A stretch of 64,000 nt of DNA from Chloroflexota bacterium (GCA_030447245.1 JAUJPG010000004.1:16843-80842); one strand, 5' to 3'. Positions 11,126-54,908 are shown, numbered from the stretch's first letter. Numbers and translations: made by a program. The notes: generated by a model from the letters alone, not told the origin.

Positions 11126-11129
11126 GACC

Positions 11130-23479: not shown

Positions 23480-23482
23480 CCC

Positions 23483-37891: not shown

Positions 37892-40402
37892 GTGGATACG
37901 CCCAACAGAGCACCCGCATGGAGCATTGGCCTGGTGATACGCGTGGTGCGTGGTGTTGCCCTGGTAGTTGGCGTCACCGCCTGGGTCGCGTACCTCGGGC
38001 GGCTGCTCCTCCGCGCGCTGCACATGCTTCAGTTGGAGGGGTATCAATCCGCGCGGTTTCTGCACTGGTCGACGAAGAAGGCGGAGCGCTGGGCGCGGAG
38101 TGACCGCGCCGCGCTCGCGGTGGTCGCGGGGGCGATCGGCCTCGCGGGGCGGTCCGCGCCTGGTGGCCGGCCGGCATTCGCCGCCGCGGTCTGGGCCGTG
38201 ATCGGGGCATGGCTGCTGCGAGGGGCGACGTTTGGAGCGGCCAAGAAGCCGCTGGTGCTGACCCCGCGGGCCAGGCGCCTACTGGCCGGCGAGGCGTTCA
38301 TAGCAAGCGTGGCGGCGATCGGGCCGGCCGCGTGGCTTGCGATCCGCGGGCGGCCAGACGCGGGGGCAGGCCTGTGCGTCGGGATCTCCGCGGCCAGCCT
38401 GTTGGTGCCGACAATCGCGGCAGGCGCGAACGTGCTGCTCTGGCCGATCGAAGAGGGGTTCCGGCGCTACTACCTGCGCGATGCGAAACGGCGCCTGCGG
38501 GCGTGCGGACCGACGGTGATCGGCGTCGCGGGCTCGTACGGCAAGACAAGCACCAAGGAGTTCATCGCCGCGATCCTGGGGCGGCAGCGACGGGTGCTCA
38601 AGGCGCCCGGGTCCTACAACACGCCGATGGGGCTATGTCGGGTGATCCGCGAGCACCTAGAGCCGGGCCACGAGCTGTTCGTCGCGGAGCTGGGCGACTG
38701 GGTACCTGGTGACATCCGCTTTCTTTGCGAACTTGTCGACCCGAAGATCGGGGTGCTGACGACGATCGGACCAGAGCACCTCGAGCGATTTAGAACCCTC
38801 GACCGGGTGGTCCAATCCAAGGCCGAGCTGATCGACGCGCTGCCGCCGGACGGGGTCGCCGTCGTCAACCAGGACGACTCGCTGGTCCGTGGGCTCGGCG
38901 AGCGGGCCTCGGCGCGTGGGCTGCGGGTCGTCCGCTACGGCCTGGGCGACGACGCCGACGTCCAGGCCCGCGACGTGCAGACGACGCGTGACGGTCTCCG
39001 GTTCGTGGTGGACGCGCAAGGCCACGGGGTCGCCGAGCTACGGGTCGGTGTCCTCGGACGGCACAACGTGTCCAACCTCCTGGCGGCGGCGGCAGTGGCG
39101 CTCCAACTGGGGATGTCGCTGGAAGACATCGCGGAGGCGGCGTCGACAATCGAGCCGGTCGAGCACCGCTTGCAGCCGATTCGTGGGACTGGTGGAGTGC
39201 TGGTGATCGACGACGCTTTCAATGCCAACCCTCGCGGAGCCGCCGAGGCGCTCGACGTCCTGGCCGAGCTGGGGACCGGCCCTGATGGCGGACGACGCAT
39301 CCTGGTGACGCCGGGGATGATCGAGCTAGCCGAGCGGGAGTGGGACGAGAACAAGGCGTTCGGGCGCAAGGCGGGCGAGGTCTGCGACGTCGTAATTCTG
39401 GTTGGTCCGAAGCGGGCCAGGCCGATCCTCGCGGGCCTCCGCGTGGCAGGCTTTCCGGCGGACCAGACCCACGTCGTACGCAACCTGGCCGAAGCCACGG
39501 AGCGCCTGCAAGGGCTGGTTCGATCAGGCGACGCGGTGCTGTTCGAGAACGACTTGCCGGACACCTACGACGAGAACGGGACGACCGACAGCCTGGCTAT
39601 GCCGCCAACCGAAACTGTCGAGGGCGAACGCCCCACCGGTTCGGTCATCGTGGACGGCCTACGGGTCACCTACCGCGAGGAGGGCGCGGAGACCGGGCGA
39701 ACACCGGTCGTCGTGCTGCACGGATGGGGAGCCAGCAGCGGGGCCGTCGTTTCGATCCAGCGATGCCTCGGAGGCGAGCGGCGGACGGTCGCGCCGGACC
39801 TGCCGGGCTTCGGCGCGAGCGACCTGCCGCCAGAGATCTGGGGCACGGCCGACTACGCCGCGGCCGTGCGCGCATTTCTGCGGGAGGTGAAGATCGAGCG
39901 GGCCAGCTTCGTCGGCCACTCGCGCGGCGGCGGGATCGCGATCTTTCTGGCGGCGACCGCGCCCGAGCTGGTGGACAAGCTGGTGCTCGTCGACAGCGTT
40001 GGCATTCGGGCGCACCGCGGTCCTGGCTATCGCGCTCGCGTGCTGGCATTCAAGGCCGCGCGGCGGGTGGTCGCCAGTCGGTGGACGCGGAGGATCCAGC
40101 CGCTTCAGGAATGGTTCGAACGGCGGTTCGGGTCGGCGGACTACCGCCAGGCGGGCGCGATGCGCGGAACCCTGGTCCGCCTTGTCAACGAAGATCTGCG
40201 GGTGCTGCTGCCGCGAATTCAGGCGCCGACGTTGCTGATCTGGGGCGACCAGGACGAGGACACGCCGATCTCGGACGGCAGACAGATGGAGGAGCAGATC
40301 CCGGATGCAGGACTGGTCGTGTTCCCGGGCGCCGGGCACTTTTCGTACGCGGACGACCCCGGCCGATTCTGCCGCGTCGTCGACCACTTCCTCAAGAACT
40401 GA
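37892..40402 (+). CDS. Mur ligase family protein (MurF-like) with N-terminal membrane segment and C-terminal alpha/beta-hydrolase domain
   Basis: VIGVAGSYGKTSTKE P-loop, GPEHLERF, HNVSNLLAAAAVA, IDDAFNANP Mur-ligase motifs; then a continuous frame into VVVLHGWGAS...FVGHSRGGGIAIFLA...GAGHFS (GxSxG nucleophile elbow and His); N-terminal 200 aa hydrophobic. Confidence 0.65.
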   Translation: MDTPNRAPAWSIGLVIRVVRGVALVVGVTAWVAYLGRLLLRALHMLQLEGYQSARFLHWSTKKAERWARSDRAALAVVAGAIGLAGRSAPGGRPAFAAAVWAVIGAWLLRGATFGAAKKPLVLTPRARRLLAGEAFIASVAAIGPAAWLAIRGRPDAGAGLCVGISAASLLVPTIAAGANVLLWPIEEGFRRYYLRDAKRRLRACGPTVIGVAGSYGKTSTKEFIAAILGRQRRVLKAPGSYNTPMGLCRVIREHLEPGHELFVAELGDWVPGDIRFLCELVDPKIGVLTTIGPEHLERFRTLDRVVQSKAELIDALPPDGVAVVNQDDSLVRGLGERASARGLRVVRYGLGDDADVQARDVQTTRDGLRFVVDAQGHGVAELRVGVLGRHNVSNLLAAAAVALQLGMSLEDIAEAASTIEPVEHRLQPIRGTGGVLVIDDAFNANPRGAAEALDVLAELGTGPDGGRRILVTPGMIELAEREWDENKAFGRKAGEVCDVVILVGPKRARPILAGLRVAGFPADQTHVVRNLAEATERLQGLVRSGDAVLFENDLPDTYDENGTTDSLAMPPTETVEGERPTGSVIVDGLRVTYREEGAETGRTPVVVLHGWGASSGAVVSIQRCLGGERRTVAPDLPGFGASDLPPEIWGTADYAAAVRAFLREVKIERASFVGHSRGGGIAIFLAATAPELVDKLVLVDSVGIRAHRGPGYRARVLAFKAARRVVASRWTRRIQPLQEWFERRFGSADYRQAGAMRGTLVRLVNEDLRVLLPRIQAPTLLIWGDQDEDTPISDGRQMEEQIPDAGLVVFPGAGHFSYADDPGRFCRVVDHFLKN

Positions 40403-40535: not shown

Positions 40536-41768
40536 ATGACTGATCTAAGGCGCAAGCGGCGCGTGGCCGTGCTGTTCGGGAGTCGCTCGGTCGAGCACGA
40601 GGTCTCGATCATCTCGGCGATTCAGGCGATGGACGCCATGGACCCGCGCCGCTACGAGCCGCTGCCGATCTTCATCACCAGGCATGGGCGCTGGGTGACG
40701 GGGCCGGACTTGCGGAGGATCGAAGCGTACCAGGACCTGCCAGCGCTGCTCCGACGCTGCCGACCGGTCTACCTGCGGCCGGAGCCGTACGAAGCTCGGC
40801 TGTTCATGGAAGAGTCCGGTCTCATCGGCGGGCGGCGGACACGCAGCACGATCCTGGACGCGGTGTTTCCGATCATCCACGGAACGTTCGGCGAGGACGG
40901 CACGATCCAGGGCCTCCTGGAGCTCGCAGACGTGCCGTACGTCGGCGCCGGGGTGGTCGGCTCGGCGGTCGGCATGGACAAGATCATCATGAAGGCGGCG
41001 TTCCGGGCGGCCGGGCTGCCAACGGTCGAGTACCACTGGTTCACTCGACCGCGCTGGGAGCGCAGCCGTGAGGACGTGCTCGCGGAGGTCGAAGCCAGGC
41101 TGCGCTACCCGCTCTTCGTCAAGCCCGCGAACCTCGGGTCGAGCGTCGGAATCACCAAGGCGCAGAACCGCGACGACCTGGCCGACGCGATCGACGTGGC
41201 CGCCCACTACGACCGCCGCCTGCTGGTCGAAGAAAGCTTCGAGGGGGCGACCGAGATCAATTGCGCGGTGCTCGGCAACGGCGACCCTATTCCCTCGGTC
41301 TGCGAGCAGCCAGTCAGGTGGACCGACATCCTCAGCTACGAAGACAAGTACCTGCGGAGCGCCAACGGCAAAGGCAAGCGCCAGCGGGTCGGCGCCAAGG
41401 GCGCGGGTGACGGCGATGGCGGAATGGCCGGGGCAGATCGCCGCATTCCAGCCCCGATCTCGGACGATCTGACAGCCGCCGTCCAACGCCTGGCGGTCGA
41501 GTCCTTCGTTGCCATCGACGCTGCCGGCCTGGCGCGTGTCGACTTCCTCGTTGACGAGGAGAGCGGGCGAATCTGCGTCAACGAGATCAATACGCTGCCT
41601 GGATCGCTGTCGTTCTACCTGTGGGACCCGAGCGGTATCCCGTTCCCAACGTTGATCGATCGCCTGCTGGAGCTGGCGTTCGAGCGGCATCACGAGCGCC
41701 GGCAGACGACGTTCACCTACGACAGCACCCTCCTCCAGCAGATGGCCAGCGGCTCGAAGCAATCGTAG
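40536..41768 (+). CDS. ddl: D-alanine--D-alanine ligase
   Basis: VAVLFGSRSVEHEVSIISA, HGTFGEDGTIQGLLE and ATP-grasp C-terminal EINTLPG motifs. Confidence 0.85.
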   Translation: MTDLRRKRRVAVLFGSRSVEHEVSIISAIQAMDAMDPRRYEPLPIFITRHGRWVTGPDLRRIEAYQDLPALLRRCRPVYLRPEPYEARLFMEESGLIGGRRTRSTILDAVFPIIHGTFGEDGTIQGLLELADVPYVGAGVVGSAVGMDKIIMKAAFRAAGLPTVEYHWFTRPRWERSREDVLAEVEARLRYPLFVKPANLGSSVGITKAQNRDDLADAIDVAAHYDRRLLVEESFEGATEINCAVLGNGDPIPSVCEQPVRWTDILSYEDKYLRSANGKGKRQRVGAKGAGDGDGGMAGADRRIPAPISDDLTAAVQRLAVESFVAIDAAGLARVDFLVDEESGRICVNEINTLPGSLSFYLWDPSGIPFPTLIDRLLELAFERHHERRQTTFTYDSTLLQQMASGSKQS

Positions 41769-41798: not shown

Positions 41799-42205
41799 AT
41801 GTGATGGGACCGTGACCACAGGGTTCTCCCCGCGGCCGCTCGGCAGATGTACACTGCCGCCGTCAGACGCGGCCGAGCCGAATGGTGAGGCCGGGTGACA
41901 GCGGCAGGCCGTTCCTTCGCGAGTCGCCGCTGGTTTTCCGCAGTTGGGGCGGCGGCCAACGCCCCGTTCGTGGTCTGGCCGGGCAGCCCGGGAGGCGCAA
42001 GCTTCTCGGGCTGTTTTCTTGTCCGCCGCCCGGGGCGCTGGCGAGGCTCGGATTGGGACATCCCTCCTGTGACCCCGTACATTTACCGGGTCAGAGCAGA
42101 CAGCGTGGTATAGAGTAGTCTCACGGCAACCGGCCACTGCCGGAGGCGTCCCGCACCCTGCGCAGGGTGCCCCCGGGGCGAGTGGCTGGTGGGGCACAGC
42201 GCCAG

Positions 42206-44542
42206 ATGGGCTCGAACCGACGACGGGACAATCTCCCCGACTTCCAATCGGCCTTCGTTGGTCGCGGGCGGCACCTTGTCGAGGTCGCGCGGCTGCTTCG
42301 GACCGAGCGGCTGGTGACCTTGACCGGGCCGCCCGGTGTGGGCAAGACACGGCTGGCGCTCCGCGTCGCGAGCACGATGAGAAGCCGGTACGCCGACGGC
42401 GTCTGGCTCGTCGAGCTGGCGGCGATCGCCGAACCGGCAATGGTGGCGCACCGAGTAGCGAGGACGCTCGCCGTACTTCCCCGGCCAGGTCGGGCCCTAC
42501 TCGACGAGCTGGCGGCGCTGCTCCAGGATCGGCGCGCTTTGCTGGTGCTCGACAACTGCGAGCATGTCCTGGACGCCTGCGCGAGACTTGCCGATCGCCT
42601 GCTGCGTGCCTGCCCTGAGCTGGCGATCCTGACGACGAGCCGCCAGTCGCTCGGGCTCGCCGGTGAGTGGGCGTGGCTGGTGCCGCCACTGTCGGCGCCA
42701 CCAGTTGGCGGGCTCGGCAACGGCGCGCCGCTGGGCGAGCGCGACGCGATCGAGCGGTATGAGGCCTTCGAGCTCTTCGTAGAGCGCGCCCGGAGAGCCT
42801 CCCCGAGCTTCGCGCTGGACCAAGGCACCGCCGCGGCGGCGGCCCAGATCTGCTGCCGCCTGGATGGACTGCCGCTCGCCATCGAGCTGGCGGCGGCTCG
42901 CACGAGCAACCTGAAGGTCGAGGAGATCGCGGCCCTGCTCGACGACCGCTTCACTCTGCTGACGGCCAGTCCGGACGCAACGCCGACCGGCCAACGGTCG
43001 CTTCGAGCGACCCTGGACTGGAGCCACGATCTGCTGTCAGAGGCGGAGCAGGTCCTGTTCCGACGGCTGGCCGTGTTCGTCGGCGGCTGGACGCTGGAGG
43101 CGGCCGAAGCGGTGTGCGCGATCGACGGCGGATTACCCTCGATCGTCGATCTGATTTCGGGCCTGGTGGACCAGTCGCTGGTGGTGGCAGATGAGCGGGG
43201 TGGCGAATTCCGGTATCGGCTACTGGAGACGCTTCGCGAGTACGGACTGGAGCGGCTGCGCGCGGCGGGCGAAGAGGAGGGCCTGCGCGACGCGCACCTC
43301 GACTGGCTGCTGCGCTTCACCGAGGATGCCGAGCCCGCGCTGCGTGGGGCACAGCAGGCCGACTGGCTGGACCGGCTCGAAGTCGAGCACGACAACCTGC
43401 GGGCGGGACTCGGCTGGTGTCTCGGGCGCGGCTCGGCAGAGTCGGGACTGCGCCTGTGCTGGGCGGTCTGGCGCTTCTGGCTGACCCGCAACCATCCCGC
43501 CGAGGGGCTGGCGTGTCTGGCGCGGGTGCTCGGCCTGGAACGGGCAAAGGCGGAGCCCGCGTTGCACTTCGCTGGACTGTTTGCCGCCGGCCGGCTTGCC
43601 TACGTGGCAGGCGATCCAGAGACCGCGCGTCGGTCGCTCGAGGAGGCGCTCGCGATCGCAAGGGAGCTGGACCACCGAGAGGATATCGCCGGCGCCCTGA
43701 CTCAGCTCGGGCATCTCGCACGCGAGCGGGGCGATTACGCCACCGCGCGACGGCTGTACGAGGAGAGCCTCTGCCTTCGGCAGGAGGCCGGTGATCGGCG
43801 ACTGATCGCGATCTCGCTCGGCAGCCTCGGGCGGGCGGCCTACGGCCAGGGCAACCTGGCCGAGGCGCGGCAGCTAGCCGAAGGGAGCATCCACCTGAGT
43901 CGCACGGCTGGCGACCCGCGCGACCTTGGGACGTTGCTCGTGTTCCTCGGCGACGTTGCCAGTGAGCAAGGCGACCGCGACGCGGCGCGGGCATACTACG
44001 CCGAGGCGTCGGCCATCATCGAGCAGCTCCGAGATCGCCAGCTCCTGGCACAGCTCCTCGAAGGTTTCGCGGCGCTCGCGGCCGACGAGGATCGAGGACA
44101 GCGGGCACTGCGCCTGGCCGGCGCGGCGGCCGGCCTGCGCGAGTCGATCGGTGTCTTGCTCCAGCGTACCGAGCGTCATCGGCTGGAGCGCCGGATCGAT
44201 CCACTCCGCCGAACACTCGGGACGGACCGCTTCATGGCCCTCTGGGCCGAGGGCCGGGCCATGCCGATCGCGGACGCCATCGGCTACGCACTCGACGTGG
44301 ATCAGGTGCCCGATGCCGCGGCGGCCGTCCGGGCCGCCGCGGCCGAGCTGGGCCTGACGCCAAGCGAGCAGCGGATCACGCTGTTGCTCGGGCAAGGATT
44401 CAGCAACCGTCACATCGCCGCGACGCTGGAGGTCTCCGAGCGGACGGTTGAGTGGCACGTGGGCAATCTCCTGGACAAGCTGGGGCTAGCGTCGCGGGTC
44501 CAGGTGGCCGTGTGGGTCGTCGAGCACGGATTGGCGGGCTGA
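42206..44542 (+). CDS. STAND-type ATPase / LuxR-family transcriptional regulator
   Basis: Walker A LTGPPGVGKTRLAL, long TPR-like helical middle region, C-terminal LuxR HTH (LTPSEQRITLLLGQGFSNRHIAATLEVSERTVEWHVGNLLDKLG). Confidence 0.75.
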   Translation: MGSNRRRDNLPDFQSAFVGRGRHLVEVARLLRTERLVTLTGPPGVGKTRLALRVASTMRSRYADGVWLVELAAIAEPAMVAHRVARTLAVLPRPGRALLDELAALLQDRRALLVLDNCEHVLDACARLADRLLRACPELAILTTSRQSLGLAGEWAWLVPPLSAPPVGGLGNGAPLGERDAIERYEAFELFVERARRASPSFALDQGTAAAAAQICCRLDGLPLAIELAAARTSNLKVEEIAALLDDRFTLLTASPDATPTGQRSLRATLDWSHDLLSEAEQVLFRRLAVFVGGWTLEAAEAVCAIDGGLPSIVDLISGLVDQSLVVADERGGEFRYRLLETLREYGLERLRAAGEEEGLRDAHLDWLLRFTEDAEPALRGAQQADWLDRLEVEHDNLRAGLGWCLGRGSAESGLRLCWAVWRFWLTRNHPAEGLACLARVLGLERAKAEPALHFAGLFAAGRLAYVAGDPETARRSLEEALAIARELDHREDIAGALTQLGHLARERGDYATARRLYEESLCLRQEAGDRRLIAISLGSLGRAAYGQGNLAEARQLAEGSIHLSRTAGDPRDLGTLLVFLGDVASEQGDRDAARAYYAEASAIIEQLRDRQLLAQLLEGFAALAADEDRGQRALRLAGAAAGLRESIGVLLQRTERHRLERRIDPLRRTLGTDRFMALWAEGRAMPIADAIGYALDVDQVPDAAAAVRAAAAELGLTPSEQRITLLLGQGFSNRHIAATLEVSERTVEWHVGNLLDKLGLASRVQVAVWVVEHGLAG

Positions 44543-44798: not shown

Positions 44799-44843
44799 AC
44801 AGTACGGAGAACCCCGTACTTAAACCCCGTACTAGTACGGGGG
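44799..44843 (+). repeat. GTAC-containing motif, copy 3, ending in perfect 18-bp palindrome CCCCGTACTAGTACGGGG
   Basis: acagtacggagaaccccgtacttaaaccccgtactagtacgggg, about 90 bp upstream of 44934. Confidence 0.7.
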
Positions 44844-44933
44844 CGTCAATGGCAGCACAGGCCGTAGAGTGGTGTCAGGACGGTGTGCCATCAAGTCGGA
44901 GCGGAAGCTCCCGCGCAATGAGGAGGATTTCTC

Positions 44934-45977
44934 GTGAAGCCTACAGGACTCGCTCGAATCGCCCTGACGGCAACGGTCGCGCTCGGCGCCATCTGGAGTG
45001 CGGGCGGCGACGGCGGGCCGAGCACATCGTTCGCCTCGCTCGAGGCGGCGTCGCACCCCGAGGCGGCGCGGCAGGTTGCGACGCCGACGGTACCCGGCCT
45101 ACCTGAGAGCGCTCCGCTGCGCGTCGTCGACACGTTCGACGCCGTCGACAAGGGCGGGCGGGTCGCGCCCGGGCCCCAGGCCATCCCGCCCAACAGGGGT
45201 GACGAGCTCGTCGTGCCGGTCGAGCCCGACGACAACACGGGGTTCACCGACCGGATCAAGCATGACCCGAGCGACCGCATCGAGGACCTGGTCACGACCA
45301 CCGGCCTGTCGGTCATCCCCGAGGCGCTCCGGCCGGGCACGCACCCCTTCCCTGACGAGCCGCCCTTCACGCCGGTCGGGCCGATGGCGAACCCGCACGT
45401 GTGGGGGATGCGCTGGGTAAGCGAGGAACTCGAGGACCGCAGGGGCTATAACGACCCATGCAGGGAAAGCAACTCGACCGACCCGGTGCGCCCGAACTCG
45501 GTCGGCTTTCGCAACGTCAACAAGGTCGACGACCTCTGCAGCCTTAACCCGTTTTACCAGCTGGCTTTCAAGTTCGACTTCAGCACGCTGCGCCAGGCCA
45601 GCTTCCTTCCGATCAGCGCCGCGCTCAAGTTCCACGAAACCGTCTATGAAGAGCGCGATTCAAACGGCAACTATGTTCCCTTCGTCGGATTCCAGAACAC
45701 TTGCTCGCTCCGGCTCGGACGGCCGAATGGGCCCTGGAACGCCCCGCACGTAGGGTACCGAGGGCTCCCGTACACCGACCCACGGGAACAGAACCGGATC
45801 GGCGAGTTCAACGACATTCTGGACTGGGTGGTCACGATGGTTCGGAATCCCGCGGAGGAGGCTAAGGGGCTGATCCTCATCGGCAAGAGCGAGGACCGGA
45901 ACCCCGACAACGCCGCCTGCATGTCCCAGATCTCGAACATCGAGCTCGTGTTCACCTACGTGATCGCGGACCGTTGA
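44934..45977 (+). CDS. secreted Cys-containing hypothetical protein, family A (intact copy)
   Basis: Signal peptide MKPTGLARIALTATVALGAIWSA; conserved LAFKFDFS, CSLRLGRP, ILDWV, GLILIGKSEDRNPDNAACMSQISNIELVFTYVIADR shared with three other copies in the window. Confidence 0.6.
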   Translation: MKPTGLARIALTATVALGAIWSAGGDGGPSTSFASLEAASHPEAARQVATPTVPGLPESAPLRVVDTFDAVDKGGRVAPGPQAIPPNRGDELVVPVEPDDNTGFTDRIKHDPSDRIEDLVTTTGLSVIPEALRPGTHPFPDEPPFTPVGPMANPHVWGMRWVSEELEDRRGYNDPCRESNSTDPVRPNSVGFRNVNKVDDLCSLNPFYQLAFKFDFSTLRQASFLPISAALKFHETVYEERDSNGNYVPFVGFQNTCSLRLGRPNGPWNAPHVGYRGLPYTDPREQNRIGEFNDILDWVVTMVRNPAEEAKGLILIGKSEDRNPDNAACMSQISNIELVFTYVIADR

Positions 45978-46014
45978 GCGCTAGCACCGTGAAGACCGTA
46001 CATCGGAGTTCGAA

Positions 46015-47376
46015 ATGCGACTGACCACGCTCACCCGGGCCGCGCTTGCGGCGACGATCGTCCTCACGCTCGGCGGGCCGGCTCGTCCGGCACGGGCGGA
46101 CGAGTTCACCGTGACGCGCACCGACGACACCACCACCTGCACCCCCGGCGACTGCTCGCTGCGCGGGGCGATCATCGCCGCCAACACCTCGGCCGGACCG
46201 GACGTGATCTTGCTGCCGGCCGGCCTCTACATCCTGACGATCGGCGGCGCGGACGGCGGCGTCCTGGCCGCCAACGACGCCCAGAAAGGGGACCTCGACA
46301 TCGTCAATGGCTCCAGCATCACCATCGTCGGGGATGGCCCCGATACGACGATCATCGACGGCAATGGCGACATGACCCTCGATCGCGTCTTCGACATCGG
46401 CGCGGGCGGCAGGCTCCAGCTCGGGGGCGCGACGATCATGAACGGCCGCGCCGGAGTCGGCTTCCAGAGCCATGCCCACGGCGCCGGCATCCACAACCAC
46501 GGCTCGCTGATCCTGCAGAACGTCGTCATCAGCGACAACCGCGTCATGCTGACCGGCTGGGGCGGGGGCGGCATCACCAACGCGGACGCGCCCCAGAAGG
46601 CCTCGGCGTCGCTGAACAACGTCACCATCAGGGACAACGAGGCTCTCGAAGACACGGGCGGTGGCGCCATCGAGAACCTGAGCTTCCTGCAGCTCGAGAA
46701 CAGCACGCTGGCCAACAATCGAGCGCGCAATGGCGGCGGGATCGAGAACAAGGGAGTCAACGCCCTGGCCGGCCTGACCAACGTGACGATCAGCGATAAC
46801 CGCGCGGTCTCCAACGGGACCCCGACCACCGGCTTCGGCGGCGGTATCTCCAACCGAGACGGCGCGACCCTCTCCATGACCCACGTGACGCTGGCCGGCA
46901 ACAGCGCGGACACCCGCGGGGGTAACCTGGCGGCGCTGGACAAGGGCAAGTCCGTGACGCCCATCAACACGATCTTCGCCGACGGCAGCCCTGCCGATTG
47001 CTTCATCGAGGCGACCGGCGGCTACGTCTCCAACGGCACCAATCTCGCGACCGACGCCAACTGCAACCTGGCCGGCGCGGGCGACCGGCCGGGCGGCCAG
47101 GTGCAGCTCGGACCGTTGGCGGACAACGGCGGCCTGACCCCGACCCGCGCGCTGCTGCCGGCATTCCCTGACCACGGCAACGAAGCGATCGACGCCTGCA
47201 ACCCGGCGTCGTCGACGGACGCCGACCAGCGCGGCGAGCCCCGTCCCAGGGACGGCGACGGCGACGGCACGGCGATCTGTGACATGGGCGCCTACGAGAT
47301 GCAGCGCGCCGAACGCGGGCATGACAACGACAACGAGAACCACGACAACGACAACCATGACAACGACAACGACTAG
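46015..47376 (+). CDS. CSLREA-domain right-handed beta-helix surface protein (choice-of-anchor-type C-terminal region) with Asp/Asn-rich tail
   Basis: Signal peptide, CSLRGAIIAAN motif, repeated N.T....N beta-helix rungs, C-terminal DNGGLTPTRALLP...AIDACNP...DGDGDGTAICDMGAYE, tail HDNDNENHDNDNHDNDND. Confidence 0.7.
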   Translation: MRLTTLTRAALAATIVLTLGGPARPARADEFTVTRTDDTTTCTPGDCSLRGAIIAANTSAGPDVILLPAGLYILTIGGADGGVLAANDAQKGDLDIVNGSSITIVGDGPDTTIIDGNGDMTLDRVFDIGAGGRLQLGGATIMNGRAGVGFQSHAHGAGIHNHGSLILQNVVISDNRVMLTGWGGGGITNADAPQKASASLNNVTIRDNEALEDTGGGAIENLSFLQLENSTLANNRARNGGGIENKGVNALAGLTNVTISDNRAVSNGTPTTGFGGGISNRDGATLSMTHVTLAGNSADTRGGNLAALDKGKSVTPINTIFADGSPADCFIEATGGYVSNGTNLATDANCNLAGAGDRPGGQVQLGPLADNGGLTPTRALLPAFPDHGNEAIDACNPASSTDADQRGEPRPRDGDGDGTAICDMGAYEMQRAERGHDNDNENHDNDNHDNDND

Positions 47377-47423
47377 AGACCTCCTGCCGAGCGTCGGCCG
47401 GGGTAAGCGGGAGGCACACGCTG

Positions 47424-48197
47424 ATGGAGACCGAACATTCGATTGTGGCGCCAGGGCATGGGCGCGACCGATCGCGGTGGCTGCGCTGGACGGCGCTGCT
47501 GGGCCTGGTGGTCGCGCTGACCAGTCTGCCGGGCGTCGGCCTGGCGGATGACGACGAGAACAAGAAGAAGGACAAGCAGACCGCGAGCCTGCGAGAGTCC
47601 AGCCAACAGCAGACGATCGGACCAATCGACGACGCCGATCGGATCAGGATCCCTGACCTGACCGAGAAGCCGGGCCTGCCGCCGGACACGGTCGCCACCC
47701 CGGTCGACAACTTTGACGATCGGGTCAGGATCCCTGACCTGACCGAGAAGTCAGGTCTGCCGCCGGACACGGTCGCCACACCGATCGACCACGACCGGGT
47801 CGAGCAGATCGGCCAGCTGGTCGGCGAGAACACCTGGACGGACCGGGCCCCGATGCCCACCTCGCGCTTCGGGCTTGGGCTGGCGGCGGCGCAAAACGGG
47901 AAGCTCTACGCCGTCGGCGGCTACAACAACGGCGGCGCGCAGGCCACGGTCGAGGAGTACGACCCGGACCTCAACACCTGGAGGGCTCGGGTCCCGCTGC
48001 CCACCCCGCGCTCCGGGCTCGGGCTGGCGGTGGCGTCCAACGGCAGGCTCTACGCCGTCGGCGGCAACAACGGCAGCGCCTTTCTGGCCACGGTCGAGGA
48101 GTACGACCCGGCCACCAACACCTGGACGGCCCGGGCCCCACTGCCCACCGCGCGCTACGCGCTCGGGCTGGCGGCGGCGCAACCCTGCAAGCTCTAG
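47424..48197 (+). CDS. Kelch-repeat protein, truncated by an in-frame stop
   Basis: Signal/TM segment, two 27-aa tandem repeats RIPDLTEK.GLPPDTVATP, then Kelch blades (GKLYAVGG...EEYDP.TNTW); TAG at 48195 replaces the Tyr of the next LYAVGG. Confidence 0.6.
   Translation: METEHSIVAPGHGRDRSRWLRWTALLGLVVALTSLPGVGLADDDENKKKDKQTASLRESSQQQTIGPIDDADRIRIPDLTEKPGLPPDTVATPVDNFDDRVRIPDLTEKSGLPPDTVATPIDHDRVEQIGQLVGENTWTDRAPMPTSRFGLGLAAAQNGKLYAVGGYNNGGAQATVEEYDPDLNTWRARVPLPTPRSGLGLAVASNGRLYAVGGNNGSAFLATVEEYDPATNTWTARAPLPTARYALGLAAAQPCKL
47640..47795. repeat. near-identical tandem repeat (2 x about 78 bp) inside the Kelch gene
   Basis: cggatcaggatccctgacctgaccgagaag... repeated with a few substitutions. 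Confidence 0.7.
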
Positions 48198-48410
48198 GCC
48201 GTCGGCGGCGACATCGGCGGCGCGCAGGCCACGGTCGAGGAGTACGACCCGGCCACCAACACCTGGACGGCCCGGGCCCCGCTGCCCACCCCCCGCTCCA
48301 GCCTCGGGCTGGCGGCGGCGCCCAACGGCAAGCTGTACGCCGTCGGCCATCGGCGGCGCGCAGGCCACCATCGAGTACGACCCGAACGCCGACACCCTGG
48401 ACCGCTGAAC
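48198..48410 (+). pseudogene. degenerate continuation of the Kelch repeats after the premature stop
   Basis: AVGGDIGGAQATVEEYDPATNTWTARAPLPTPRSSLGLAAAPNGKLYAVG then frame loss. Confidence 0.5.
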
Positions 48411-48529
48411 GCCCGCGCCGCTCGCTGCTGTTCAATCGAGCCCGCCTCGCCCATGACCCAGACCTGGCCAAGCAGCAGGGCGCCGTCCCACCCTGGTCGT
48501 TCCCGCTGTACGCAGGATGAGCGAGCACG

Positions 48530-48875
48530 GTGCGCTCGTCAGCGATCTCGACCATGACCCAGACCCGGACCTTCCGCTCACGGGCGATGATCCGTTACCC
48601 GACCGGCAACGGGGCCGTCAGGATCAGGACTGTCGGCGACGGCGAGCTGACCCAGAATGGGTTCGGCTCGCCAGCGAAGTCGACAGGAGGGCAAGCCGCG
48701 CAACGCGGTGCCCGACTCTCGCACTCGGTGCCCGCCTTCCGCGTCAACCGGATGATCCGCTACTGATGCCAACAATGGCGTCCTGCTGCGCGGCTCCGAC
48801 GAGACGCTTTGGACCCAGGACAGCGCGTGCGTCTCCAACATCAGGCTCTCGTTCACCTACGAGATCTCCGATTAG
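48530..48875 (+). pseudogene. family-A C-terminal remnant
   Basis: Ends ...DSACVSNIRLSFTYEISD, matching the AACMSQISNIELVFTYVIAD C-terminus; upstream part degenerate with internal duplications. Confidence 0.5.
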
Positions 48876-48912
48876 CAGCCCTCGGAGACGCGTCTCGGCG
48901 CGTCCAACGGCG

Positions 48913-48947
48913 AAAACCCCGTACTAAAAGCCCGTACTAGTACGGGG
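48913..48947 (+). repeat. GTAC-containing motif, copy 4, ending in palindrome CCCGTACTAGTACGGG
   Basis: aaaaccccgtactaaaagcccgtactagtacgggg, between the family-A remnant and the CARDB-like gene. Confidence 0.7.
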
Positions 48948-49048
48948 ACGCCGGAGCGCGGTGCCGTATCGTGGTCCCAGGGCACCGCGGGTGCGCGCCG
49001 AACGGGTGCGCGGTCGCCTCGCACCGCGGTTCGGGGGAGGATCTGAGG

Positions 49049-49480
49049 ATGACGCGATCTCCGTGGCAGCGGCGGCTGCTCTCGGCGCTGCTGGCCGCCA
49101 GCGTCGTGGCAGCGGGACTGCCCGGCGAGAGCTGGGCGCAGGCCCGACCGGACCTGGAGCTAACCTACGGCGGCTTATTGCCCGACAAGCTCCGACTCGT
49201 CAAGTTCACGGTCAAGAACGTCGGCACTGCGCCCTCGTCAGCGACCAATAAGGTCGGGGTGATTACCTCCGAGCCCGAGCCGACGCCGTCGTTCCAAGGG
49301 CTCGACCTGCCGCCCCTCAAGCCGGGAGAGAGCAAGGACGTGTTCTACACCCTTGCCGCCGACTGCAACGGGCACGTCGTCCAGGCGCTGGTCAACGACC
49401 CGCTTGACCTGAACACAGCGAACAACGCTGTCGAGGACAAGCAGGGTCTGCTCGGGCGCACCGGTCGCCACGTCGCCTGA
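49049..49480 (+). CDS. small secreted CARDB-like (Ig-fold) protein
   Basis: Signal peptide MTRSPWQRRLLSALLAASVVAAGLPGESWA after a GGGGGAGGA RBS; LVKFTVKNVGTAPS...ANNAVED resembles a CARDB domain. Confidence 0.5.
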   Translation: MTRSPWQRRLLSALLAASVVAAGLPGESWAQARPDLELTYGGLLPDKLRLVKFTVKNVGTAPSSATNKVGVITSEPEPTPSFQGLDLPPLKPGESKDVFYTLAADCNGHVVQALVNDPLDLNTANNAVEDKQGLLGRTGRHVA

Positions 49481-49510
49481 AGACCCGTTTACGGTCGAAG
49501 ACTACGCCAC

Positions 49511-50203
49511 GTGCGCCACCTGCAACGTGCCGGGCGGAGTTTCGACCCGGGCCTGCACACGCTGTCCCTCCGCCGGGCGGCCTTCAAGACGCTGAGACGC
49601 CACAGGGTCGAGGGCGATTGCTACATCGGGCACGAAATCGTCGACGAGGCGCAGAACCCGCCCTTTCCACTCATGGGCGGCACCGGAATATCAGTTCTGA
49701 GAGCCCCGATCTTAACTCGTGACTGTCAGACTAATGGTGTCTGGCACGCGGCGTTCAGGTTCAACCTGTCCGAAATCCGGGGGCGGTGGGCGGCCGGGCG
49801 GTTGTCCGTGCTCACCATGGAGCTGACATTCGAAGAGACTCCGTACCTCTCGTCCCTCGACGGCATCACTGGCAAGAGGGAGTTCATGATTAACCTCTGG
49901 CGTCCGCCCACCTTCGACTTTAGTCAGCACGCGCCGACCGAGACCTGCTGGCCGCGGCTGGCCCGTCCGACGGTCGACTGGAGCCGCACGGGCATCGTGG
50001 TCCCGAACGACGTCCTCCTTGAGGCGGGACAGATCGGCACCTTCCCGCTGCTGCATCAGATCGGCGATATGCTGCGCTACCCGGAGAACGACGGGCTCGG
50101 ATTCCTGATCCTCGGCCACAACGAGGAGATGCACTTCAACGACGCGGAGTGCGTCTCGAAGATCGACAACGTCACACTCAACGTGACCTACCACGTCCAC
50201 TAA
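49511..50203 (+). CDS. family-A paralogue (divergent, no obvious signal peptide in the called frame)
   Basis: AFRFNLSEIRG, ETCWPRLARPTVDWSRTG, GFLILGHNEEMHFNDAECVSKIDNVTLNVTYHVH align with the other family-A copies; may be fused to or frameshifted from the upstream CARDB ORF. Confidence 0.55.
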   Translation: MRHLQRAGRSFDPGLHTLSLRRAAFKTLRRHRVEGDCYIGHEIVDEAQNPPFPLMGGTGISVLRAPILTRDCQTNGVWHAAFRFNLSEIRGRWAAGRLSVLTMELTFEETPYLSSLDGITGKREFMINLWRPPTFDFSQHAPTETCWPRLARPTVDWSRTGIVVPNDVLLEAGQIGTFPLLHQIGDMLRYPENDGLGFLILGHNEEMHFNDAECVSKIDNVTLNVTYHVH

Positions 50204-50291: not shown

Positions 50292-51797
50292 ATGATGATG
50301 CAGGCATCCGAGGTGGAGTCACGGCCGTGGGCGACGGTGCCGGGGCCGCTCGACCGGGCGAGCTTCTTCGAGGAGCAGGCCCGGCATCGGCGGTCGACCT
50401 GGCGGCTGACGGCGCTCTGCCTGGCGGCGGTGGTGCTGATGGGGCTGGTGGTGAGCGTCGTCGTGACGCCGCTGCTGATGGCGCAGATCGGCATCACCCT
50501 CGCGGTGCTCGGAATCGTGCTGCCGGTCCCAGACGTTCTGAAGGCCATTCCGAACGGGTACGCCGATCTGATCGCCCCGATGATGCATCAGGATCAGCGT
50601 CCGGCGACCTTCGGACAGATCGTCGTCGGCTGGGCCTTGTTGCTCGGACCGGGCGTGGCGGTGATGCTCCTGATCTCGTTCTGGCTGTGGTCGCTCTTCC
50701 TGCGGGCCGGGGTTGGCGGCGCGCTGCTCGCGCTGGGGGCACGTGCGCCGCGGCCCGATGACCTCGAGGAGCAACAGCTCGTCAACGTCGTCGCCGAGAT
50801 GGCCATCGCGGCCGGGCTGCCGCCTCCCCAGGTCGTGCTGCTCGACTCGGACGTGCCGAACGTGGCGGTCATTGGCTCGGGGCCGGACGACGCGACCGTG
50901 GTCGTCTCGCGGCGACTGCTGGATGAGTTCGACCGGGACCAGACCCAGGCGGCGCTCGGCCACCTGATTGGCTCGATCGGCAATGGCGACCTACGCATCG
51001 CCTTTGCGATCGTGTCGGTGTACCAGACCTTTGGCCTGCTGATGACGCTGCTCGACGCGCCGTTCACTGGAGCCGCTCGCTCCACGATCGGCCGCACGCT
51101 GCGTTTCGCCCTGCGTCGACCGGACCGCGACGCGGCCGGCGAGGCCGAGCGGGTGACGGCGCTCTTCTCCCAGACGTTCACGTCGGCACGGCTCGACGAG
51201 ATCGGCAAGTTCCTGGAGCCCGATCCAGACACCTGGCTGGGTCGGCTCGACCAGCGCACCGTCATCTTCCGCGGGATTCGGATCGCCGTCTTGATGCCGC
51301 TGCTGTTTGCGAACCTGTTCAGCAAGATCGTCTTGCTGGTGTTGATGCCCCTTCTGGTTGGCCCGTTGATCGCGCTGGTCTGGCGATCACGCCGCTACCT
51401 GGCGGATTCCACGGCCGTCCAGCTCACCCGCAATCCCGACGGGATGGCCGCCGCGCTGGTCGAGCTGCTCCAAAAGGGCGGGCTGCCGCCCGGCAGCAAG
51501 TGGTCGGCCCACCTGTTCGTCGTGGGCACTGAGGTCGCCCGAGAACAGGCCCAGCGTACGCTGGCGGCGAAGCTGCGAGGGATCGGGGAGGCCAATGCCG
51601 GCAGACCGCTCTCTGAGCGCCTCACCGCGGGCGTCAGGATGGCCGGCGAGGCGATGCGCGGGGCGAATGAGGCCGAGGCGGCAGACGCGGGCACCTTTGC
51701 CGAAGAGAACTCGATTCTGCTGAACTTCCACCCGCCCCTGCGCAAGCGGCTCGAGCGGCTGCGACTCCAGGGCGCGACCATCAATCTGCACGCGTAA
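50292..51797 (+). CDS. M48/HtpX-like membrane protein lacking the HExxH zinc site
   Basis: TM helices; PNVAVIGSGPDDATVVVSRRLL aligns with HtpX NAFATG...VAVSTGLL, but the active-site position reads ALGHLIGSIGNGDL where HtpX has AHEISHIANGDM. Confidence 0.6.
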   Translation: MMMQASEVESRPWATVPGPLDRASFFEEQARHRRSTWRLTALCLAAVVLMGLVVSVVVTPLLMAQIGITLAVLGIVLPVPDVLKAIPNGYADLIAPMMHQDQRPATFGQIVVGWALLLGPGVAVMLLISFWLWSLFLRAGVGGALLALGARAPRPDDLEEQQLVNVVAEMAIAAGLPPPQVVLLDSDVPNVAVIGSGPDDATVVVSRRLLDEFDRDQTQAALGHLIGSIGNGDLRIAFAIVSVYQTFGLLMTLLDAPFTGAARSTIGRTLRFALRRPDRDAAGEAERVTALFSQTFTSARLDEIGKFLEPDPDTWLGRLDQRTVIFRGIRIAVLMPLLFANLFSKIVLLVLMPLLVGPLIALVWRSRRYLADSTAVQLTRNPDGMAAALVELLQKGGLPPGSKWSAHLFVVGTEVAREQAQRTLAAKLRGIGEANAGRPLSERLTAGVRMAGEAMRGANEAEAADAGTFAEENSILLNFHPPLRKRLERLRLQGATINLHA

Positions 51798-51811
51798 GGA
51801 GGGACCGACCG

Positions 51812-52369
51812 ATGGAGCTGTTGATCGTCCTGGCGGTGGTGGCGTTGCTGGCGTTCTACCTGGTGAGCGTCTACAACGGCCTGATCGGCAAGCGGAACCG
51901 GGTCAGGAACGCCTGGTCACAGATCGACGTGCAGCTGAAGCGTCGGCACGACCTGATCCCCAACCTCATCAACGCCGTCAAGGGCTATCTGGCTCACGAG
52001 CGGGGAGTGCTGGAGAGCGTCACTCGCGCCCGCGCGGAGGCGATCGCGGCCGGCAATGACGTCCCCGCGCGAGCGGCGGCAGAAGGCGAGCTGACCCGGA
52101 CGGTACGCTCGTTGTTCGCGGTGGCCGAAGCCTATCCGGATCTGAAGGGGAACCAGAACATGCTGGCCCTGCAGGAGGAGCTGAGCTCGACCGAGAACAG
52201 GGTCGCCTTCTCGCGCCAGCACTACAACGATTCGGTGATGGCGTACAACACCGCCCGTGAGACGCTTCCGGCCAGCCTCTTCGCCCCGGCGCTCGGCTTC
52301 GGTGCGGAGCCCCTGTTCACGCTCGAGGACCCAGTCGCCGAGCGCGGCGTGCCACAGGTGCAGTTCTAG
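51812..52369 (+). CDS. lemA: LemA family protein
   Basis: N-terminal TM helix and VYNGLIGKRNRVRNAWSQIDVQLKRRHDLIPNL signature. Confidence 0.85.
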   Translation: MELLIVLAVVALLAFYLVSVYNGLIGKRNRVRNAWSQIDVQLKRRHDLIPNLINAVKGYLAHERGVLESVTRARAEAIAAGNDVPARAAAEGELTRTVRSLFAVAEAYPDLKGNQNMLALQEELSSTENRVAFSRQHYNDSVMAYNTARETLPASLFAPALGFGAEPLFTLEDPVAERGVPQVQF

Positions 52370-52477: not shown

Positions 52478-52525
52478 GCGGGGGACTTGAAGCCCCCGAC
52501 GGGGAGGGGGCATGTGCCCCCTCCC
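52478..52525. terminator. two adjacent GC-rich hairpins between convergent lemA and the coxL-like gene
   Basis: cgggggacttgaagcccccg and the 24-bp palindrome ggggagggggca|tgccccctcccc. Confidence 0.35.
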
Positions 52526-52559
52526 CGAACCGGCGAGACCACGTGGCCTTTGGATCCGA

Positions 52560-54908
52560 TTATGCCTGGCCGTTCGAGCCACTGGCAGCGCGGATAGCCT
52601 TCCAGACCCGCACGGACGTGGCGGGCATGTCGAAGTCCTGGATCCCGAGCGGGAGCAGTGCGTCGACGACAGCGCTCCGGAGAGTCGGGGTGCTGCCGAT
52701 CGTGCCGGCCTCGCCGACACCCTTGACGCCGAGCGGGTTGCGGTCGGTCGTCGTCACCGTCCGATCAAGCTCGAACATCGGCATCATGTGCGCGGTTGGC
52801 ACGGAGTAGTCGTTGAGCGTCCCGCTGACCAGCTGGCCGCTCTCGTCGTAGACGACCTCTTCGCACAGCGCCTGCGCGACACCCTGAACGATGCCGCCGT
52901 GACGTTGGCCGTCGAGCAGCAGCGGGTTGATCACATTACCAACGTCGTCGACGGCGATGAAGCGGCGGAGCGTGACGCGCCCGGTGTCCGGGTCGATATC
53001 GACAACCGCGACGTGGACGCCGAACGGGAAGACCGAATCGTCCGGCTTGAAAAAGCGGGTGGATTCCAGGCCCGGCTCGTCGCCGGTCGGGACGTTGCCG
53101 CCGTAGGCCGCGGCAGCGATCTCGCCGAGGGTGACCGCCTTGCCGGCGGCGCCGCGGACGGCGAAGGTGCCGTTGCTCCGCTCGACGTCATCCGGCGCGG
53201 CCTCGAGCAGGTGGGCCGCGATCCGCACGGCCTTGTCCCTGACCTGGTCGACGGCCATCACCATCGCCCCGCCGCCGACCGCCGCGCTGCGACTCCCGAA
53301 CGTCCCGATGCCGCTCTGGGTCATGGCGGTGTCGCCGTGGAGGACGACGATGTCGTCGATGCCGACGCCGAGGCTGTCGGCGACGATCTGGGCCATCGAC
53401 GTCTCGGTTCCCTGGCCGTGTGGCGACGTGCCGGTGTGGACCATCACCTTACCGGACGGCTCGACGCGGACCGTGGCGCTCTCCCAGGGACCGAAGCCGC
53501 AAATCTCGACGTAGGCAGCCAGCCCGATGCCCATCAGCTTGCCCTGCGCACGGGCCGTCTGCTGCTCCTCGCGGAGCTGCCGGTAGCCCGAAACTTCGAG
53601 CGCCTTGTCGAGCGCCTTGACGTACTCGCCGGTGTCGTAGTTGGCGCCCAGGCCATTGGAGTAGGGGAACTTCTCGGGTGGAATGAAGTTGATTCGACGA
53701 ATCTCGGCCGGGTCTTTGCCGAGCTCGTGGCCGATCTTGTCCATCAGGCATTCGAGGAGGTAGGTCGCCTCGGGGCGGCCGGCTCCGCGGTAGGCGCCGA
53801 CGGGCGTCTTGTTGGTCAGCACGCCCTTGAGCGTGAAGTGGATGTTGGGGATGTCGTATGGGCCGGGCATCATCATCCCGGTCAGCATCCCCATTAGGGG
53901 CGAGAGGTACTGGTAGTAGCCCCCGATGTCGCAAATAGCGTCGACGTGGATCGCCGTGACGCGGCCGTCGCCGGTGATCGCGGCCTCGACAATGTCAACC
54001 TGCCCGCGGCCCTGCATCGCGGCCTGGAAATTCTCGGAGCGCGTCTCAGACCACTTGACGGGACGGGAAAGGCGCATCGCGGCGATCGCGGCAAGGGTCT
54101 CCTCAGGCGAGACGTCGACCTTGTTGCCAAAGCCGCCGCCGACCTCCGGGGCGATGACGCGTACCTTGTTCTCCGGCACGCCGAGCAGGACGGCAAGCTT
54201 CGTCTTCAGGCCATGCGGGATCTGGGTGGACGACCACATCGTCAGCTCGCCGGAGTCACCCGGGCGGCCCGGCCGCCAGTCGGTGACGCAGCCGCGGGTC
54301 TCCATGGCGACGGCGAAGACGCGCTGATTGACGACCCGCAGCTTGACGACCCGCTCGGCGTTGGCGAACGCGGCGTCCGGATCGCCGACCTTACGGTCCT
54401 GGGTGTGACCGAGGTTCGTCCCGAACTCTTCGTACAGCAGCGGCGCCCCTGGAGCAAGGCCCGCCTCCGGGTCGACCACCGCCGCGGGCAGCGGCTCGTA
54501 GTCGACCTCCACCAGGGCGGCCGCGTCACGGGCGGCATAGCGCGTCTCGGCGATGACGGCCGCGACCGGGTCGCCGACGTAGCGGACCTTGTCGGTCGCG
54601 AGCGGCCCGCGCTCCATATTCTTGACGTCGCTGAATGGATCGAAGGCGAACTCATACGGAAGCGGACCGGTGGTGGAGCCTTCGAGGTCCTTGGCTGTGA
54701 GGACGGCCAGGACTCCGGGCACCCCGAGCGCGGCGGCTGTGTCGATGCCGTTGACGCGAGCATGGCCGTGCGGGCTCCTGACGAAGATCAGGTGGGCCAG
54801 GCCCGGGAGCTGGAGGTCGTCAACGTAGGTGGACGACCCGGTGATCAGGCGCGGGTCCTCGCGCCGCTTGATTGGTTGACCGAGCATCTTGGGTGTTGCG
54901 ACTGTCAT
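52560..54908 (-). CDS. molybdopterin-dependent oxidoreductase large subunit (xanthine dehydrogenase/CoxL family, AYRGAGR type)
   Basis: 782 aa; GQPIKRREDPRLITG N-terminus, VGAYRGAGRPEATYL active-site loop, MoCo-binding C-terminal domains. Confidence 0.8.
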   Translation of the reverse strand: MTVATPKMLGQPIKRREDPRLITGSSTYVDDLQLPGLAHLIFVRSPHGHARVNGIDTAAALGVPGVLAVLTAKDLEGSTTGPLPYEFAFDPFSDVKNMERGPLATDKVRYVGDPVAAVIAETRYAARDAAALVEVDYEPLPAAVVDPEAGLAPGAPLLYEEFGTNLGHTQDRKVGDPDAAFANAERVVKLRVVNQRVFAVAMETRGCVTDWRPGRPGDSGELTMWSSTQIPHGLKTKLAVLLGVPENKVRVIAPEVGGGFGNKVDVSPEETLAAIAAMRLSRPVKWSETRSENFQAAMQGRGQVDIVEAAITGDGRVTAIHVDAICDIGGYYQYLSPLMGMLTGMMMPGPYDIPNIHFTLKGVLTNKTPVGAYRGAGRPEATYLLECLMDKIGHELGKDPAEIRRINFIPPEKFPYSNGLGANYDTGEYVKALDKALEVSGYRQLREEQQTARAQGKLMGIGLAAYVEICGFGPWESATVRVEPSGKVMVHTGTSPHGQGTETSMAQIVADSLGVGIDDIVVLHGDTAMTQSGIGTFGSRSAAVGGGAMVMAVDQVRDKAVRIAAHLLEAAPDDVERSNGTFAVRGAAGKAVTLGEIAAAAYGGNVPTGDEPGLESTRFFKPDDSVFPFGVHVAVVDIDPDTGRVTLRRFIAVDDVGNVINPLLLDGQRHGGIVQGVAQALCEEVVYDESGQLVSGTLNDYSVPTAHMMPMFELDRTVTTTDRNPLGVKGVGEAGTIGSTPTLRSAVVDALLPLGIQDFDMPATSVRVWKAIRAASGSNGQA

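Follow-up and report, generated by a model that had tools for sequence, protein, structure and literature searches.

A predicted divergent DNRLRE/CBM96 jelly-roll in a decaying set of secreted, cysteine-containing proteins of a Chloroflexota bacterium

We analysed a 64,000-nucleotide (nt) stretch of a Chloroflexota bacterium (GCA_030447245.1, JAUJPG010000004.1:16843-80842; hereafter the window), which carries four copies, designated A to D, of a gene family for secreted proteins with conserved cysteines. The best explanation for the whole of the data, which we consider likely though short of certain, is that these proteins share a divergent DNRLRE/CBM96 jelly-roll (CBM, carbohydrate-binding module), that this domain serves as a secreted binding module, and that the copies belong to a regulated paralogue set in decay. 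The original prediction, made from the sequence alone, had described a multi-copy family of secreted, Cys-containing proteins set among other secreted proteins and pseudogenes, and this description is borne out; it had also called the family unrecognised, which holds for database annotation but not for placement. Related proteins are labelled P00xx below, and related contigs that carry family genes L0xx.

Four copies of the family, one of them intact

A family hidden Markov model (HMM) built from 67 domains was run against all stop-to-stop segments in the six frames of the window and identified four loci only: B (E 5.7e-49), A (6.5e-46), D in two pieces (1e-20 and 2.6e-18) and C (48756..48872; 1.1e-7). 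Beyond A-D, no other segment in this six-frame scan scored below E = 3.8. In tblastn and BLASTP comparisons, A was 50% identical to D over 163 amino acids (aa) (23940..24407, minus strand; E 4e-42) and 27% identical to B (49511..50203; E 1e-11), and B matched D with an E-value of 6e-12. The scan and these similarities indicate that the four copies are real and beyond chance, and four related coding stretches thus do exist at or near the places first proposed for them (Table 1). The coordinates of A stand unchanged, whereas B, C and D have new boundaries; in particular, the remnant C had been started at 48530, but 48530..48718 is unsupported and the support is confined to the two frames listed in the table. 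The motifs quoted for the family (LAFKFDFS, ILDWV, AACMSQIS and FTYVIADR) occur literally in A and D, whereas B and C contain only looser versions (AAFRFNLS, GFLILGHNEEMHFNDAECVSKI and GVLLRGSDETLWTQDSACVSNIRLSFTYEISD). The claim of a conserved Cys pattern proved correct, with Cys176, 202, 257 and 329 of A aligning with Cys37, 72, 146 and 214 of B.

The product of A is identical to the NCBI protein P0001, encoded on a 178-kb contig. It begins with a plausible Sec signal peptide, MKPTGLARIALTATVALGAIWSAG, read from the sequence and in agreement with the earlier assignment, which is followed by a Pro/Asp-rich linker, a lead-in strand 'PEALRPGTH' (aa 129-137) and a C-terminal jelly-roll (~aa 186-347) that, on reading the sequence, ends directly after the last beta-strand. 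Its conserved cysteines are the pairs Cys176/202 and Cys257/329.

Two of the copies had been taken as intact and two as decayed; we found one intact copy, A, and three decayed ones. The stretch 49511..50203, counted earlier as the second intact copy, lacks a signal peptide, and colinear homologues identify it as the 3' part of a broken gene. P0010 is colinear with 49148..50197, across the TGA at 49478..49480 (46% identity, E 1e-82 by tblastn), and P0014 with 49115..~50200 (41%, E 1e-73); together with P0007 and P0008, these are proteins of ~400-430 aa with the order signal peptide, CARDB, linker and domain. Besides the TGA, B contains two compensating frameshifts (+1 then -1), and a 28-codon stretch of the linker, VCSGAPVATSPEDPFTVEDYATCATCNVP, lies in another frame between ~49440 and ~49525; its counterpart in P0010 is VCPPPPPVVPVSPDTTVDYGACAVCDIP. 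The 5' open reading frame (ORF), which probably starts at ATG 49049 and runs up to the TGA, encodes a signal peptide and CARDB, and the domain ORF is 49511..50203. A CARDB protein had been listed among the neighbours of the family. The domain is indeed there (with 24.4 bits, the product of 48971..49477 exceeds the gathering threshold of 22.7 for Pfam PF07705, E 3.4e-5), but because P0010-type homologues run colinearly through the TGA, the supposed neighbour (48971..49480) is the 5' half of B itself.

Copy C belongs to the P0035/P0028 subtype by tblastn, and over 48771..48866, its main piece, it shares 58% identity with the matching part of P0035. Copy D, which retains no N-terminal signal peptide, is closest to the metagenomic protein P0002 (60% identity over 215 aa, E 1.5e-74) and is interrupted by a TGA (24531..24533) and by a TAG (24141..24143) in place of a Tyr conserved in A and P0002. 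The interior of D (24413..24479) also contains an imperfect inverted repeat with 32-nt arms, 75% complementary, and the core CCCAGCATGAC...GTCATGCTGGG; owing to this repeat, both strands encode a peptide like residues 103-119 of P0002. In the Kelch pseudogene, which lies between the CSLREA gene and C and retains ~4-5 blades, a TAG stands at 48195..48197 in place of the Tyr of 'KLYAVGG' and the frame shifts near 48345 (tblastn self-repeat comparison and codon check). Recoding of stops, for instance to selenocysteine, was considered and rejected, since the TAG codons of D and of the Kelch gene each replace a conserved Tyr and the TGA of D lies in a garbled segment.

Beside D, on the minus strand at 22091..23543, a signal-peptide gene is spread over three overlapping frames. 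Asp-box-like motifs (SRSDDGGVTW, SVSRDDAVTW and SLDGGATW) can be read from its sequence, no Pfam match was obtained in its ORFs, and it is probably another frameshifted secreted-protein pseudogene. As judged from the sequence, A, the CSLREA gene and the regulator gene are intact, whereas decay has affected B, C and D together with the Kelch and Asp-box-like genes, all five of which are pseudogenes.

The earlier description of the family as fast-evolving did not hold. At least three old subtypes are represented among the copies, and closer counterparts of each occur in other metagenomes (D with P0002, B with P0010 and, over its tail, C with P0035, at the identities given above). Because the same subtypes adjoin in L003, we regard the paralogues as old subtypes kept together rather than as recent duplicates, and on these comparisons the window displays an old set of paralogues in decay rather than rapid divergence.

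Placement in the DNRLRE/CBM96 superfamily

The original prediction could not place the domain, and this remains true of the window copies as far as database families are concerned. The HMM search of the A product against Pfam and PDB that it had proposed as a check gave no family match, and neither A, B nor D matched Pfam, NCBIfam or PDB sequences, even at E<=10 for the family HMMs; none of the three reaches the curated cut-off of NF033679 or PF24517. A 46-sequence domain profile matched no PDB sequence, and a 68-sequence profile retrieved only CARDB structures from PDB and none for the domain.

The domain can be placed, however, through fold models and through its relatives. Structure prediction, another proposed check, yielded AlphaFold2 (AF2) models of A (aa 129-347, from the 68-sequence alignment; predicted local distance difference test (pLDDT) 81.9, predicted template-modelling score (pTM) 0.80, core ~90) and of B (aa 40-230; pLDDT 92.6, pTM 0.85). 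Independently of each other, both models ranked DNRLRE/CBM96 structures first, and the predicted beta-sandwich is superposable on the solved structures 7VBO and 8WAB. Among the relatives, 28 of 68 members matched the NCBIfam model NF033679 (DNRLRE_dom) at E<=1. P0033 is the sole member to reach the curated cut-off (34.8 bits against 34; E 1.6e-8), followed by P0021 (6.7e-7), P0022 (3e-5) and the second L001 gene (6.1e-5). These matches span positions ~28-144 of the model, the same region and register that the family profile matches, and P0033 itself was recovered at E 1.4e-8 by a profile of the window copies and P0002 alone. The CBM96 model (PF24517) matched one of the 68 members (E 0.0085). 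On the basis of the AF2 models and the DNRLRE_dom matches of these intermediate relatives, the ~160-aa shared region is placed, at the level of predicted structure, as a highly divergent branch of the DNRLRE/CBM96 beta-jelly-roll that current family models do not detect.

The family is rare, and its members come so far only from metagenome contigs and contigs of metagenome-assembled genomes (MAGs). In a word-indexed search of 5.8 billion proteins, A alone recovered two proteins, itself and one other, and a profile of the window copies and P0002 recovered 11. The latter profile was used in an exhaustive HMM search of 1.84 billion representatives, which returned 74 proteins at E<=1e-3, two of them repeat-protein false positives. 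The 46-sequence profile found three proteins and no annotated relative in a word-indexed homology search. All ten clusters examined were singletons, and the cluster names contained nothing besides 'hypothetical protein'. Searches of genome contigs with A, and of metagenome contigs with B-type and A-type alignments, found nothing.

The 68 aligned members (domain statistics refer to 67 domain sequences) are mostly 350-450 aa long, with an overall range of 230-480 aa. In each, a signal peptide, as read from the sequences, precedes CARDB-linker-domain or domain-linker-CARDB, with zero, one or two CARDB domains. Pfam CARDB was found in 30 of the 68, so that these relatives, like the 5' half of B, resemble known CARDB proteins in carrying this immunoglobulin (Ig)-like domain beside the jelly-roll; A and its subtype lack it, and CARDB is therefore an accessory and not the shared domain. 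The signature of the latter consists of the lead-in LRPGxH strand, 'vGf', 'Q.A..FDLS' and 'C..LG.PT.DW', then 'W.VT..V' (in most members), 'GfvLrG..E' and 'C.S....L.V.Y'. In A numbering, Cys257 is present in 66 and Cys329 in all of the 67 domains; Cys176 and Cys202 are less frequent (24/67 and 35/67), and A and B possess all four. Every one of the 67 domains is acidic (median isoelectric point (pI) 4.7, maximum 6.19). A separate acidic stretch, 'ADDD(N/E)D(N/K)...' (for example GLADDDENKKKDK), stands right after the signal peptide in P0007, P0014, P0019, P0021, P0015 and others, and also in the unrelated Kelch protein of the window (N-terminus, 47424..); it may be a leader or pro-region shared by secreted proteins of this lineage.

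Compared with the known DNRLRE/CBM96 domains, the family thus differs in that its window copies are unseen by the NF033679 and PF24517 HMMs, in lacking the DNRLRE motif, and in having two near-invariant cysteines and the extra N-terminal LRPGxH strand. It also differs in context. In the cited lyases and hydrolases, the DNRLRE/CBM96 domain is one accessory module within a larger multidomain protein, a context that is typical without being a formal criterion and that is not seen in family members of 230-480 aa, which are small, stand-alone or fused to CARDB, and encoded in tandem paralogue arrays.

Upstream element and gene neighbourhood

A palindromic element precedes both A and the CARDB-B gene, and a degenerate form occurs on the minus strand upstream of the frameshifted Asp-box-like gene (ATG ~23341; Table 1). 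Upstream of A it comprises a perfect 16-bp palindrome, CCCGTACTAGTACGGG, at 44826..44841, and a -10-like TAGAGT 24 nt further on (44865..44870). The window contains three matches to the palindrome against 0.14 expected, a number reached in none of 100 shuffles. The distances to the start codons of A, CARDB-B and the third secreted gene are ~100, 110 and 112 nt. When aligned, the three regions share GAAAAcCCCGTACTnAAAcCCCGTACT...ACGGGG, then, 24 nt on, the block CGTAnnGTGGT, which contains the -10-like TAGAGT or TATCGT, and then a GGGAGG Shine-Dalgarno sequence. Measured from centre to centre, the palindrome precedes the -10-like hexamer by 34 nt, which would place its centre near -44 relative to the predicted transcription start, and there is no -35 match. 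A centre near -44 without a -35 match is the geometry typical of class II, lux-box-type activation by LuxR-family activators.

We regard the element as a candidate operator and promoter. The obvious candidate to bind CCCGTACTAGTACGGG is the LuxR-type regulator encoded next to it, and we infer that the two may form a pair. This regulator resembles MalT/LuxR STAND activators in combining NB-ARC/AAA, MalT-like tetratricopeptide repeat (TPR) and GerE helix-turn-helix (HTH) domains, and the arrangement resembles lux-box-like class II activation, where such activators act at a palindrome that overlaps the -35 region, in that the palindrome stands ~34 nt before a -10-like hexamer, here upstream of three secreted-protein genes; it differs from the MalT/LuxR class II arrangement in its extra direct half-site and in that regulator and site are matched from the sequence. 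The element of the window was absent from all other fetched loci. Other shared motifs were observed there: the L088 paralogues (85..390 and 1528..1672) have in common the upstream motif GTTGCCGGnTTGATAnCGG...CTGCGTCGTATnATT with sigma-70-like -35 and -10 boxes, and the L085 paralogues (7700..8005 and 14581..14856) the upstream motif CGAAAaTGsGTAGTTTC. Such sharing suggests, from the sequences, that family paralogues are co-regulated in other genomes too.

Table 1. Positions of family copies, neighbouring genes and upstream elements in the window
Feature	Position	Strand	Remarks
Copy A	44934..45977	+	Sole intact gene, 347 aa
Copy B	~49049..50203	+	Broken CARDB-linker-domain gene
Copy C	48719..48875	+	Remnant of the last ~50 codons; frames 48719..48763 and 48771..48872, then stop
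Copy D	23937..24578	minus	Single-frame pseudogene with two in-frame stops
Element upstream of A	44808..44870	+	Direct half-site CCCGTACT; palindrome; -10-like hexamer
Element upstream of CARDB-B gene	48912..48975	+	Palindrome 48931..48946, 110 nt before ATG 49049
Degenerate element	23441..23480	minus	CCCGTGGAAGTACGGG at 23445..23460, 3 mismatches
STAND (NB-ARC/AAA) + TPR (MalT-like) + LuxR/GerE HTH regulator	42167..44542	+	Pfam; directly upstream of A
Secreted CSLREA/choice-of-anchor Q protein	46015..47376	+	NF041518, 55.7 bits; TIGR04214; 37 nt downstream of A
Kelch-repeat pseudogene	47424..48410	+	Pfam Kelch; between CSLREA gene and C
TypA	34528..36552		77% identical to Chloroflexota MAG TypA; 60-65% to Ktedonobacteraceae

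Pfam and NCBIfam agree with the earlier naming of the CSLREA/choice-of-anchor Q, Kelch and CARDB neighbours, and parts of this neighbourhood recur elsewhere. Homologues of the regulator are encoded next to the family genes of L001 (38% identity, E 2e-72) and L085 (38% identity over 645 aa, E 1e-90), and the CSLREA protein is 67% identical (E 3e-45) to the product of the gene that follows the family genes of L003. The order in L003 is B-type (P0008), C-type (P0035) and CSLREA; the set in the window is A, CSLREA and the Kelch, C and B pseudogenes. Two or three family genes lie within a few kb of each other in six of the nine related contigs (L001, L003, L004, L085, L087 and L088). In L085, a 952-aa NHL/BNR/Sortilin-type beta-propeller is encoded on the minus strand (9224..12082) between its three family genes and the STAND/LuxR regulator, echoing the Kelch propeller of the window; homology of this propeller to the neighbour of D was considered and rejected, since tblastn gave no match.

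The TypA identities (Table 1) mark the host as an uncultured Chloroflexota. The GC content of the window is high (0.68). Base composition displayed no island-like anomaly, and Rfam, tRNA and sigma-70 promoter/terminator scans around the locus found nothing relevant. Further genes of the plus strand include an 836-aa ORF (37892..40402) with an unusual fusion of Mur ligase middle and C-terminal domains to an alpha/beta-hydrolase domain, directly followed by a D-Ala-D-Ala ligase gene (40536..41768). Just downstream of B (50292..52369) are genes for a membrane M48-family peptidase-like protein (501 aa) and a LemA-family protein, and then a 461-aa ORF (52512..53897) without a Pfam or NCBIfam match.

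Proposed function and its alternatives

According to the explanation that we favour, family proteins would be exported through the Sec signal peptide. The jelly-roll is probably braced by a disulfide between the near-invariant Cys257 and Cys329, as their conservation suggests, and a second predicted disulfide, Cys176-Cys202, may form in many members; fusion to the CARDB Ig-like domain is usual. Fold and context point to a module that acts outside the cell, has no catalytic activity and binds a polymer, probably a glycan. The MalT-like regulator would activate A, B and the third secreted gene through the palindrome ~44 nt upstream of the predicted transcription start, and the proteins would be expressed together with the CSLREA beta-helix and propeller proteins.

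As to the ligand, the solved relatives offer a guide. The structure 7VBO is a CBM96 alginate-binding module with a positively charged groove containing Lys10/22/25/27/31 and Arg36, for which a structural Ca2+ site is reported and disulfides go unmentioned (PMC9971899); this shallow groove, which also includes Tyr159, binds an acidic polysaccharide. The ligand of 8WAB, a chondroitin-sulfate-binding module, is likewise a polyanion. The family domains, in contrast, are acidic (pI ~4.7) and probably without a positively charged groove like that of 7VBO; ahead of the FDLS strand, the consensus sequence contains no conserved group of basic residues. This acidity, common to all family domains, makes a polyanion of the kind bound by CBM96 and 8WAB an unlikely ligand. 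Ligand class does vary within the superfamily, since in a polyhydroxybutyrate (PHB) depolymerase the surface of the DNRLRE domain is neutral and flatter (PMC12278694). A glycan that is not strongly anionic would be the most likely ligand.

Several observations weigh against the favoured explanation. The Foldseek comparison with PDB was weak (best E 6e-3), and its top matches were pro-TGF-beta2 and pro-BMP9 (TGF, transforming growth factor), not CBMs; the motif D[NDS]R[LIVM]R[ED] is absent from all 67 domains. The basic residues with which CBM96 binds alginate have no evident counterpart in the acidic domains of the family, and glycan binding is for this reason an extrapolation from fold and context. 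Regulators of the STAND/LuxR type are probably frequent in genomes of this kind, so that the adjacency of regulator and family genes in three loci is only suggestive. Finally, the frameshifts of B and C could be assembly errors, an account that fits the three nonsense substitutions less easily.

This last point bears on the alternative that B, and possibly C, is functional, its frameshifts being assembly or consensus errors in the MAG, so that the genome would have at least two functional copies. The two shifts of B, located in G/C runs at a distance of 80-90 nt, compensate each other, and the frame is intact elsewhere, with the similarity to P0010 extending along its full length. We nevertheless think this unlikely: the same 3 kb also contain the nonsense codon and frameshift of the Kelch gene and the truncated, two-frame C, D holds two nonsense substitutions, and long genes nearby (791, 836 and 869 aa) are uninterrupted. 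The three nonsense substitutions and these intact genes speak for genuine decay and against noise in the assembly. As regards the domain itself, the absence of any Pfam, NCBIfam or PDB sequence match for the window copies and the 46-sequence domain profile, together with the great rarity of the family and its singleton clusters, could suggest a truly new family unrelated to any characterised fold; given two confident AF2 models that put DNRLRE/CBM96 structures first and 28 of 68 relatives, one reaching the curated cut-off, that match DNRLRE_dom, we attach very little probability to this.

Two other alternatives accept the fold and differ in the role assigned to it. The proteins could be structural or adhesive components of the cell envelope (S-layer- or adhesin-like) with no specific soluble glycan ligand, as the first description of the DNRLRE domain in archaeal cell-surface proteins and disaggregatase (PMC2447325, PMC9971899), the frequent CARDB fusion and the neighbouring secreted repeat proteins might indicate. 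No cell-wall anchor, S-layer homology domain, sortase motif or C-terminal sorting signal is visible, with A stopping after its last beta-strand, and small proteins (230-450 aa) in diversified paralogue arrays fit ligand diversification better, which makes a purely structural role improbable. The jelly-roll could also be a protein-binding, cap- or prodomain-like module that holds or masks a partner, such as the beta-helix or beta-propeller proteins, instead of binding a glycan; similarity to the prodomain arm of the TGF-beta family and to the C-terminal shielding domain of polyphenol oxidase speaks in its favour. The Pfam model TGFb_propeptide (PF00688) matched four of the 68 relatives below threshold (best E 1.4e-4) and no window copy. 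A TGF-beta propeptide is recognised by its HMM together with a downstream cystine-knot ligand and a convertase site, whereas the family proteins are bacterial and terminate with the jelly-roll, leaving no cargo domain or processing site in cis and no cystine-knot growth factor, furin site, straitjacket or latency elements. The best structural and sequence matches remain bacterial DNRLRE/CBM modules, and 7VBO itself has the same set of structural neighbours, including the prodomain similarity, yet is a CBM (PMC9971899). A masking role is therefore quite improbable in our estimation, and we prefer the secreted binding module.

More tentatively, since we doubt that the data extend so far, the family could be a distinct clade ranking as a CBM family of its own, consisting of acidic, disulfide-braced, stand-alone DNRLRE-like lectins whose ligand is not a polyanion and whose regulon is controlled through the CCCGTACTAGTACGGG operator. 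If this were true, a secreted regulon that includes the CSLREA beta-helix and the beta-propellers would be switched on by a MalT-like STAND/LuxR activator.

The value of these findings is incremental, and they do not overturn current understanding. A rare, unannotated secreted family, 'hypothetical' or unnamed in the searched databases, is now placed in a known fold superfamily, and this placement yields a testable function, non-catalytic polymer binding. The window records how an old set of paralogues decays, and the candidate operator offers a direct handle on a STAND/LuxR regulon. The DNRLRE/CBM96 superfamily now takes in small acidic proteins that stand alone and are braced by cysteines, reaches into a phylum that has been little studied, and gains a conserved neighbourhood of regulator, CSLREA beta-helix and beta-propellers that may guide work on secretion and binding in Chloroflexota.

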